DNA of 64,000 bases from Schmidtea nova (lineage: Eukaryota), in the NCBI GenBank assembly GCA_044892505.1, contig CM097883.1, forward strand, positions 386,632,001-386,696,000, read 5' to 3'. Each line of letters begins with the position of its first letter. Position 1 is the first letter of the stretch. The notes beneath the pieces were generated by a model. That model saw only the letters and a program-made list of their open reading frames with translations. It did not search any database and was not told where the DNA came from. The translations under genes were made by a program, and so were the position numbers. This document shows, in pieces, positions 15,226-17,151 of the stretch.

Positions 15226-17151
15226 ATGACAATATTATTGACAATGTTGAATTGGGTGAAAGCAATTGCTTACATATTTGATCAGAGGAGAGCAGAGGCG
15301 AGAATAGTTACAGATACAGAAAATATATGGATAACGAATATCAAAGGAGAGGTAATAATTAAAATATGTACAGTTGCAATACGGAAAAATGGAGTCAGTG
15401 ATCACCAGAAATGCATAAGAACAGCATTAGCAATAGGAGAAGAACAAAAGATCGAAAAACTCGAATCAGGAACAACATATATAATATGTGTATATCGAAC
15501 AAATCAAATAAGAGCAATCTGTGCAGCTAAAGAAATGATTACGAAAATGGGAAACGAGAGGAACAAGCCAGAAAAAATACAAAGTGTCACAAAAACCCCA
15601 ATAGATGAAAATGAAGAAGAAAACGAAGAAGAAGAGCAAGATAAAAAGGCTATGATGACGATCCAGAACAAAACAACAATAGAAGTGAAAGAAAAAGAAA
15701 TGATGGTAACAAACAATGTGAGAGAGCCTATAACTCAAATTTGTTGGATAAAAACCATCCATATGCAAAATAAGGACAGACAATTATCGTGTAAATTTCA
15801 AATGACAGGCCAAAATGGAAAATTCAGAATACCAGGATTGAAGCCAGGAACAAGCTACACGATATGCATAAGAAGAATATGGACACAAAAACTATGTCTA
15901 GAAAAACTCACCAAGGAAATCATAACGACAACTACAACAACCAGTGGAACAACTACTTATTACCCTCTGATAGTAGAAACGAAATCCACGGAAATAATAC
16001 TAATAAACAACCATGACGAAGTAATCAAAAAGGTTTGTTGGAGAAAGGTCGATATGAATAGTGGGCTTGACAACCCTAGCAAATGTTATCAACAGTCAGT
16101 AAAGGGAAAGGAACAAATGATAATCAAAGAGTTAGAATCAAAAACAACGTATCTAATATGCATATGGAGAACTTTAGTCCCAATTTGTCAAGAACACACC
16201 ACGACAGAACAAATAATAACAAGCACAGAAAGCGGGAGAGAACCGGATGAAAAAGCAATAAGACTCCCAAGAGCAACAATAACTGTAACAGAAAAACCAA
16301 CGATAGTCAAAGGTTACAGAAAAGAAATAGAAATATCAATCACTCCAAACCAAATACAAAAAGAAACCGAAAAATTCTTTCAAAATGATATTATAAAAGT
16401 CAAAAACGTACAAGGACATCTTATTGCTAGAATATGCATTTATGAAGTAAAACTACAACAAGAAAAGTGTAAAAGTGTGAGCAATAAAGAAGAAAAATCA
16501 TTTATTGAAGAAGAGGAATATTATGTAGCCGGATGGGAACGAGGAACTAAATACCGGGTATGCCTCTACAAAAAATTAAATGAACATCCAACATGTCAAT
16601 TTATTTCAAAATTACCTAGACGAGTAGACGATACCAGAAAATTCAGTACAGAAGATCAAATACTAACAACAAAACCAACAGTTTATAATAAATATATATC
16701 GGAGGAAGAAGCCGAACGAATAATTCAAGGAGGGAGACCGATCAAAATCGTACAAACAACAACGGAATCTCCAACAACAATATCAGCAGCAGTAGAAGAA
16801 TCAAAAATAGCAATCAAAATGATATGGATAACTGCCGGAATAATAGGCGCAATATTGGTTTTGATTCTCACACAACATGCAAAAATCACTGGAAGATGTA
16901 AAAGAAAACCGAAAAGAAAGAGACAATGGCCAAGCATCGAGAAGTTCGAATATGGAATCAGTTTAGAAGAAGTAAAGACGGAAGACGAATATGAGATATG
17001 CAATGGATCAGAATTCAATGGAATGTGGATGCAAGGACTACCACCAACGATAAATCCGTCAATAATAGAAGCAGATATATATCGAACTACAAATGAATTA
17101 TATGGGGGAATGCGAAACCTATATTTCGGCCCTCAGGAGACGTTGGTGTAA
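15226..17151 (+). CDS. 641-aa type I membrane protein in the env position: weak signal peptide, 4 FN3-like repeats, Thr/Pro stalk, TM helix, cytoplasmic tail
   Basis: Four repeats ending LESGTTYIICV, LKPGTSYTICI, LESKTTYLICI and WERGTKYRVCL. TM IKMIWITAGIIGAILVLIL, followed by basic RCKRKPKRKR. ORF is intact. Confidence 0.8.
   Translation: MTILLTMLNWVKAIAYIFDQRRAEARIVTDTENIWITNIKGEVIIKICTVAIRKNGVSDHQKCIRTALAIGEEQKIEKLESGTTYIICVYRTNQIRAICAAKEMITKMGNERNKPEKIQSVTKTPIDENEEENEEEEQDKKAMMTIQNKTTIEVKEKEMMVTNNVREPITQICWIKTIHMQNKDRQLSCKFQMTGQNGKFRIPGLKPGTSYTICIRRIWTQKLCLEKLTKEIITTTTTTSGTTTYYPLIVETKSTEIILINNHDEVIKKVCWRKVDMNSGLDNPSKCYQQSVKGKEQMIIKELESKTTYLICIWRTLVPICQEHTTTEQIITSTESGREPDEKAIRLPRATITVTEKPTIVKGYRKEIEISITPNQIQKETEKFFQNDIIKVKNVQGHLIARICIYEVKLQQEKCKSVSNKEEKSFIEEEEYYVAGWERGTKYRVCLYKKLNEHPTCQFISKLPRRVDDTRKFSTEDQILTTKPTVYNKYISEEEAERIIQGGRPIKIVQTTTESPTTISAAVEESKIAIKMIWITAGIIGAILVLILTQHAKITGRCKRKPKRKRQWPSIEKFEYGISLEEVKTEDEYEICNGSEFNGMWMQGLPPTINPSIIEADIYRTTNELYGGMRNLYFGPQETLV

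Follow-up and report, generated by a model that had tools for sequence, protein, structure and literature searches.

The giant gypsy retrotransposon Burro1/GYPSM1 is known from dugesiid planarians. According to the available text of PMC6431247, its first open reading frame (ORF1) encodes 4,873 amino acids and contains MATH and ankyrin parts, together with an env region that lies in frame between Gag and the protease (PR). We analyzed a 64,000-nucleotide stretch of contig CM097883.1 (assembly GCA_044892505.1, positions 386,632,001 to 386,696,000 of the forward strand; hereafter the window), in which an open frame of 641 amino acids at 15226-17151 encodes a membrane protein with four fibronectin type III (FN3)-like repeats. 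This protein, called the module below, is carried by a long terminal repeat (LTR) element which, judged from its sequence and set beside Burro by description, is a Burro-type giant gypsy. Taking the anatomical results together, the module is very probably the in-frame C-terminus of the giant gypsy polyprotein, with an FN3 fold and under constraint. Earlier work had already described this type of element, its in-frame env and its apoptosis-related cargo. The FN3 module appears new relative to the description in the available text of PMC6431247.

A genome-wide search with the module gave 2,004 first-look candidates, 69 of which were scored. All 69 were 97-100% identical to the query, and seven lay in open frames near 5,000 amino acids. 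The module is thus borne by the element, as the first-pass annotation had held, and is not a one-off copy of a host gene. The family is highly abundant and has been active recently, with about 2,000 first-look candidates and LTR pairs that are 99.7% identical. Scoring of 150 copies by their ankyrin region showed frames of at least 4,990 amino acids in 50 and frames of 1,349-1,350 amino acids in 31. The first-pass annotation had taken the module for a separate ORF in the env position and for the only intact long ORF of the element. The former has to be abandoned, since the frame is continuous with pol and stayed open for more than 500 codons 5′ of the module ATG, into the ankyrin region, in 26 of the 29 other fetched copies. 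The latter is true of the deleted copy in the window and untrue of the family, given the 50 long frames just mentioned. In the window, where the frame is open for 40 codons 5′ of its ATG, the separate look of the ORF comes from two features of this copy, its membership in a common deletion subfamily and an in-frame stop at 15103-15105. The stop is private to this copy; none of the 29 others had a stop at that distance.

The full order of the polyprotein was read from one long natural copy as two overlapping stretches. It is a single frame of 4,892 amino acids from the first Met. The order is Retrotrans_gag, three CCHC zinc knuckles (confirmed on three stretches), MATH, PF24664, a transmembrane (TM) segment, PR, reverse transcriptase (RT), RNase H (RH), integrase (IN), ankyrin repeats, an acidic linker and the FN3 module. 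PF24664, the Monjiviricetes fusion glycoprotein, was matched in frame between Gag and PR with an E value of 2.4e-67, and the Pfam matches to MATH and Ank_2 had E values of 7e-24 and 7e-14, respectively. The only strong hydrophobic segments of the polyprotein are two pairs of signal-like and TM segments, which flank the fusion ectodomain and the FN3 stack. One copy (L036-L040) measured 29.1 kb between its termini and had a 4-bp duplication.

Many of these features are shared with Burro as described in the available text of PMC6431247: a single ORF1 of about 4,900 amino acids (4,873 in Burro1 and 4,892 here), a length of about 29-30 kb, long LTRs, Gag with three CCHC knuckles, the gypsy order PR-RT-RH-IN, MATH, ankyrin and an in-frame env between Gag and PR. 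IAP and TRAF cargo was found here in relatives of the element. None of the searches returned a reference sequence of Burro. Judged by the type of element, the host is likely a planarian. As for the BIR/IAP cargo of Burro, the main family here shows a RING remnant and no BIR in the fetched stretches, and an intact BIR-RING ORF occurs in a third family, family C, which is described below. The BCL2-, SUMO- and dUTPase-like motifs of Burro were found with HHpred (PMC6431247, available text). In our element there was no Pfam or PDB match for BCL2 or dUTPase; ubiquitin-fold matches were weak, and so was a Rad60-SLD match in family C. The Burro env was called gypsy-like, with matches to mononegavirus glycoproteins, in the available text of PMC6431247, whereas Pfam assigns PF24664 here. 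A similar env is known from Anakin, a Pao/BEL element with a captured chuvirus glycoprotein, which the accessible part of PMC7642597 describes as likewise an LTR element with a Monjiviricetes-type env, although it belongs to another superfamily and another host. The comparison with errantivirus env and baculovirus F made in the first-pass annotation is inapplicable because the family has a PF24664 fusion domain between Gag and PR; the module itself is in frame with pol, has an FN3 fold and has no envelope match in Pfam. The text of PMC6431247, as far as available, makes no mention of FN3 or fibronectin, a second membrane protein, internal signal peptides or a PDZ motif in Burro. In the literature on Burro and on retroelements with FN3, a PDZ motif or a signal peptide, no description of the module appeared among the entries listed, although figures or supplements of Grohme 2018, Jurka 2007 and Lee 2026 may label it.

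All parts of the module lie on the forward strand. A predicted internal signal peptide at 15199-15264, recognized by hydropathy and by its pattern of basic, hydrophobic and small residues, is followed by FN3-like repeat 1 (15268-15540; seven strands in a low-confidence model), repeat 2 (15655-15921; Pfam fn3 and alignments), repeat 3 (15949-16212) and repeat 4 (16354-16620; placed by alignments and the most divergent of the four). Aligned with each other, the repeats have invariant N, I, T and Y and four Cys each, which makes 16 Cys in the ectodomain. The first-pass annotation had correctly seen four Cys-bearing repeats of about 90 amino acids, but the motif L..GT.Y.IC that it assigned to all of them is exact in only two of the four: in repeat 3, K replaces G, whereas repeat 4 carries W instead of L and V instead of I. 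As also predicted, a single strong TM helix is present at about residues 530-549 with a basic stop-transfer cluster just behind it (16813-16872; KD19 hydropathy 2.44). The cytoplasmic tail (16873-17151) contains all four Tyr motifs listed earlier, although its length is about 90 amino acids rather than about 110. It ends in E-T-L-V, a class I PDZ-binding pattern, in 30 of 30 copies.

The view of the module as an FN3-type type I membrane protein and no fusogen was borne out by the fold and by the lack of an envelope Pfam match on the module. On the whole protein of 641 residues, Pfam fn3 scored 29.2 bits (cut-off 25; E = 1e-6) over one stretch only; when the repeats were run singly, one of the four had an fn3 match (E = 0.0075). 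AlphaFold modeled repeat 3 from a six-row alignment of element repeats only, giving seven strands with a pLDDT of 83.1 and a pTM of 0.72. The full ectodomain modeled from one sequence reached a pLDDT of 33. A Foldseek search with the repeat 3 model put fibronectin, Tencon and monobody FN3 domains in its top PDB rows (best E = 6.6e-4, probability 1.0, TM score about 0.6-0.7). VIA-align placed sDscam FNIII1 first, with Z 9.9 and a root-mean-square deviation of 2.2 Å over 77 residues; tenascin, fibronectin, interferon-receptor and LAR domains followed within 1 Z. All 13 matches of the repeat profile to PDB at E ≤ 5 were chains bearing FN3, though they were weak (best E = 0.0035). The predicted fold of the repeats is therefore FN3, by modeling for repeat 3 and by alignment for repeats 1, 2 and 4. 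Several kinds of FN3 domain scored alike against the model, and no single FN3 subfamily stood out.

Compared with animal FN3 surface proteins (sDscam, fibronectin, tenascin, LAR/PTPR, interferon receptors, FNDC5 and FNDC9), the module shares the seven-strand fold and the type I layout. However, the structural matches were only 6-22% identical, and the module has four Cys per repeat. The repeats have Asn at the place in strand B where FN3 domains usually have Trp. FNDC9 and FNDC5 were Atlas leads at 0.87 and are leads only. Database searches for protein homologues of the module, including those in which it formed part of a query of 3,032 amino acids, gave no matches, and 113 pattern matches in metagenome contigs yielded no confirmed case. 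The sole match in a full representative search was a carboxypeptidase-regulatory repeat protein (E = 2.5e-5), which we judged to be a beta-sandwich look-alike. A viral fold library returned generic FN3 and Ig-like rows only, none at E ≤ 0.001. The search for a host paralogue as the donor gene, which the first-pass annotation had proposed, found none close: the repeat profile reached a best E value of 0.31 against the frames of 35 host FN3 loci, the most Pfam-like of 92 matches, a search that a divergent or intron-split donor could escape. An origin from a leucine-rich repeat (LRR)-FN3 receptor, also suggested earlier, gained no support from these loci. Pfam found no LRR in the module or 5′ of it, and no LRR-FN3 protein (FLRT, LRFN or LRRN) was among the fold and profile matches listed.

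The module might have been a functionless passenger, captured by chance or copied recently from a host gene. Within 300 nt past its stop, an AATAAA followed by an A-run occurs in 30 of 30 copies (17192-17238 in the window). This suggests the former capture of an mRNA, although it could also be an internal poly(A) site. Substitution patterns speak for constraint. The first estimate of pN/pS, 0.23 over the whole ORF, came from 30 copies ranked by their score to the query, and for that reason it was repeated on 30 copies chosen by the ankyrin region, of which 28 were usable (one was truncated and one had a gap). Over module residues 15-290, the shared variants were 12 non-synonymous and 14 synonymous against 664 and 164 sites, and pN/pS was again 0.23. 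A binomial test gave P = 1e-4, which assumes that the variants are independent, and they are not. All 10 Cys of this region were kept in all 28 copies. The module, by this comparison of copies, is under purifying selection. No close host paralogue was found and the module was kept in both the main family (family A) and family C, so a passenger or recent host copy is an extremely improbable explanation, largely refuted by the dN/dS and pN/pS data. In two pairs of long copies, dN/dS was 0.22 for the FN3 ectodomain, 0.03-0.05 for the fusion domain and 0.01-0.07 for RT and IN. The faster evolution of the FN3 ectodomain might fit a host-facing protein. The frame of 1,350 codons in the deletion subfamily also looks conserved (0.22). 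However, the identity between this subfamily and full-length copies jumps at one point, from about 76% just 5′ of the open frame to 96-100% 3′ of it. This suggests refreshment by recombination, and we claim no selection there.

Whether the module could be expressed as a gene of its own, starting at its ATG or by way of a spliced RNA, and independently of the polyprotein, depends on its N-terminus. In favor of this, all of 30 copies have an ATG inside the hydrophobic stretch, and one low-depth contig skips 54 nt with GT..AG ends (15206-15261), a skip that would delete the signal. Nevertheless, the frame is continuous with pol, the hydrophobic stretch begins three residues ahead of the ATG, and the corresponding signal of family C has no leading Met. 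No trustworthy joint of a subgenomic RNA was found in the contigs covering this stretch. We regard separate expression as highly improbable. The signal of family C is also clearer than that of the main family and stands at the aligned place. Its lack of a Met supports an internal signal, from which the module is likely to be freed by signal peptidase, and the signal-like stretch at the N-terminus of the module is likely to be the predicted internal signal peptide.

Family C is a third, high-copy family with 1,295 BIR candidates. Its short chain consists of a SUMO-like part, PR, ankyrin, an acidic linker, a signal peptide and one FN3-like repeat, and it stops without a TM helix, which implies a secreted form. 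The ankyrin part is 59% identical to that of the main family, and the FN3-like repeat matches repeat 3 at 33% identity (E = 4e-5). In the fetched stretches we found neither a fusion protein nor RT. At L077-L086 (G000 C1), neighboring repeats of this non-autonomous Burro derivative lie 21-34 kb apart. After the chain of PR, ankyrin, signal and FN3, its cassette holds an intact TRAF (RING-zf-MATH), a BIR-RING IAP of 399 amino acids, a coiled-coil ORF of 527 amino acids ending in ETFV and two ORFs with signal, coiled-coil and TM segments. Judged from these ORFs, it reads like a mobile anti-apoptosis cassette. Elsewhere (L066:2-2643), a multi-copy TRAF ORF of 476 amino acids is followed by a coiled-coil ORF of 396 amino acids that ends in ETDV and is kin to the ORF of family C.

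A second fusogen-bearing family was defined from 20 loci picked by PF24664. Its RT is 56% identical to that of the main family, and tblastn gave no match to the ankyrin or FN3 parts. After IN, its polyprotein continues in frame with a signal-like stretch, an ectodomain of about 320 amino acids with eight sequons, a TM segment and a short tail, which ends in ETFV in 19 of the 20 loci. Both fusogen-bearing families seen here have a second membrane protein. Two subfamilies can be told apart, with 55-60% identity in the C-terminal part; dN/dS of the ectodomain was 0.13 at a near-saturated dS. This ectodomain had no PDB match, and an Atlas hit at 0.86 is a lead only. At L046-L065, an ORF of 469-483 amino acids follows the polyprotein; it looks like a DEDDh exonuclease by eye and had no Pfam match at E 0.1.

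The sequence E-T-x-V is a class I PDZ-binding motif. Besides the module, it ends four other element ORFs, among them two related coiled-coil ORFs, one of which belongs to family C. Its codons differ synonymously among the five, which are not fully independent of each other. None of 1,580 control frames ended in this way. The tail of the module is thus predicted to be a candidate PDZ ligand.

Attachment, decoy and superinfection block had been proposed earlier as roles of the module, and all three are reasonable. In our assessment, the chances are about even that the module serves the fusion protein as a partner in binding or adhesion, with both produced in equal amounts from one chain and the module held at PDZ scaffolds. 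Such a division of labor is familiar from viruses: paramyxoviruses (HN/G and F) and herpesviruses (gD/gH-gL and gB) have attachment and fusion on separate proteins, and the polyproteins of flavi-, alpha- and bunyaviruses are cut by signal peptidase. We compare only how these systems work, with two type I glycoproteins and one fusogen, and claim no homology. Unlike in those viruses, Gag and Pol are in the same chain here, and the fold of the second protein, FN3, is of a host type. The two signal/TM pairs would place the two Cys-rich parts on the lumenal side and leave PR-RT-RH-IN-ankyrin cytosolic. The chain would then cross the membrane of the endoplasmic reticulum four times, in the order signal 1, lumenal fusion ectodomain, TM, cytosolic PR-RT-RH-IN-ankyrin, signal 2, four lumenal FN3 repeats, TM and cytosolic tail, with probably two disulfides per FN3 repeat. 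Host signal peptidase would free the module as a type I membrane protein, and one ORF would supply two surface glycoproteins along with Gag and Pol, all in equal quantities. The FN3 stack would bind a surface molecule on a neighboring or target cell, the E-T-x-V tail would keep the module at cell contacts by way of their PDZ scaffolds, and merging the membranes would fall to the fusion protein, either from particles or directly from cell to cell.

Several observations weigh against such a partnership with the fusogen. Two non-autonomous forms, the deletion subfamily and family C, have no fusion protein and yet keep the module, family C as one repeat without TM. Such retention fits a role independent of the fusogen, although complementation of both forms in trans could also explain it. 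The ectodomain of the second family could not be aligned to the FN3 repeats (hhalign probability 0.07), so the shared layout may be convergent. Anakin, the closest described capture of a chuvirus-type glycoprotein, is not mentioned with a partner protein in the accessible part of PMC7642597. The signal-like peak of the module is modest (KD19 1.8), and the signal was judged from hydropathy and pattern alone. Finally, the remaining cargo (MATH/TRAF, IAP and ankyrin) points to host signaling.

The last point leads to the alternative that the FN3-TM protein and the secreted form of family C mimic a receptor, bind a host ligand or receptor and, with TRAF/MATH, IAP and ankyrin, damp death or immune signaling. 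Among the fold neighbors there are FN3 domains of cytokine receptors (IFNAR1, IFNAR2, IFNGR and gp130), the tail has Tyr motifs, and family C, alongside its intact TRAF and BIR-RING ORFs, retains PR, ankyrin, the signal and a single FN3 repeat, with no fusogen or RT in the fetched stretches. The IAP of Burro1 reportedly protects planarian stem cells and is anti-apoptotic, as cited in the available text of PMC13465017. Against this, the module shares its chain with Gag and the fusion protein and would be made in the amounts of a structural protein, its tail of 90 amino acids has no recognizable intracellular signaling domain, and a fold as common as FN3 proves no function. We hold a decoy of this kind to be a serious though unlikely alternative. 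A further possibility is that the module occupies, on the producing cell, the receptor of its own or another mobile element, with the secreted form of family C as a soluble blocker. Soluble receptor-binding fragments block superinfection in vertebrate endogenous retroviruses, and membrane-bound and secreted forms both exist here. However, the module would then have to be the receptor-binding part, so that this explanation merges into that of a binding partner; nested and tandem insertions of the same family were also seen, though they possibly arose inside one cell. A superinfection block as the role of the module thus seems improbable.

The copy in the window, on the forward strand, starts with a 5′ LTR of 3.6 kb (TG...CA; 4118-7742), which is 99.7% identical to both halves of the 3′ LTR (18252-26134). 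Its termini are the same as in copies with 4-bp target-site duplications. The flanks of the window copy agree in three of four bases; exact 4-bp duplications were found at two other copies. An inverted solo LTR from a sister subfamily (20433-24690), with a 4-bp duplication of its own, interrupts the 3′ LTR. A primer-binding site at 7753-7770, which we take to be tRNA-Pro-like, is identical to the stretch behind the 5′ LTR in copies L037 and L042. Readings of the element as a Polinton, a Ginger element or a virus insert were dropped in view of the LTRs, the primer-binding site and RT. In the leader, a decayed stretch at 10740-11069, about 80% identical in L032, L037 and L042, was labeled by eye as an IAP-type RING remnant from its Cys/His spacing. 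A short tandem repeat array at 12058-12470, also in the leader, varies in length among copies. A large internal deletion, with its junction and a short decayed stretch at 12889-13170, removed gag, MATH, the fusion protein, PR, RT, RH and half of IN; accordingly, no gag, RT or fusion domain was found in this copy. The junction was identical in all four sampled members of the 1,350-codon class. The C-terminal half of the gypsy IN follows at 13168-13860 (Pfam rve/rve_3). Compared with copy L034, it is broken by a frame change near 13170-13180 and a stop at 13603-13605. Ankyrin repeats in frame with IN are at 14275-14505 (Ank_2, E = 1.2e-14). Copies L035 and L045 differ from window 17138-18920 by about 20% in the 3′ untranslated region and LTR, whereas the coding sequence is 97% identical across subfamilies. 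This suggests frequent recombination.

Other features were noted in and around the window. An open frame of 560 codons at 2310-3992 on the forward strand ends about 120 bp before the 5′ LTR and had no Pfam match. Fragments of a Tc5/pogo-type transposase, a hAT transposase and a Penelope-like RT/GIY-YIG element lie at 37896-38639, 43408-44049 and 46474-47583, respectively. From 52743 to 64000, the window consists of tandem units of about 1,338 bp, 98-100% identical to each other, each with a frame of about 295 amino acids for a DCP1-like decapping factor (Pfam E = 5e-12); eight frames are whole. Beside Burro copies there are long ORFs with a match to endonuclease VII (L031:4207-8448, L040:7985-10000 and L086:2-3595) and, near such ORFs, a P-loop ATPase whose best match is Pox_A32 (L036:244-876). 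By these matches, they possibly form a Polinton-like element. Near-identical element sequence was also present, at very different depths, in runs labeled as three different organisms of one study (X1, X2 and X3). Contamination may explain this, as may horizontal transfer or the sharing of an element.

LTR elements that bear an env are, in general, described as having a single envelope gene. Examples are given in the available part of PMC12440569. A frame of 15 kb with two membrane proteins flanking Pol would imply that a Gag-Pol chain is processed by signal peptidase and that binding and fusion are divided between two proteins. The module also annotates a part of the Burro polyprotein that was left blank in the available text of PMC6431247. 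Tentatively, and with somewhat less than even confidence, we suggest that Burro elements may be agents resembling endogenous retroviruses with a two-part entry apparatus, in which a fusogen captured from an RNA virus and a host-derived, PDZ-anchored FN3 adhesin are made as one Gag-Env-Pol-adhesin chain. They might move from one cell to the next at junctions, perhaps out of differentiated cells and into stem cells, and different lineages might exchange the adhesin under an unchanged layout. Should the host be a planarian, movement from cell to cell would matter for the access of the element to the stem cells that transmit elements.

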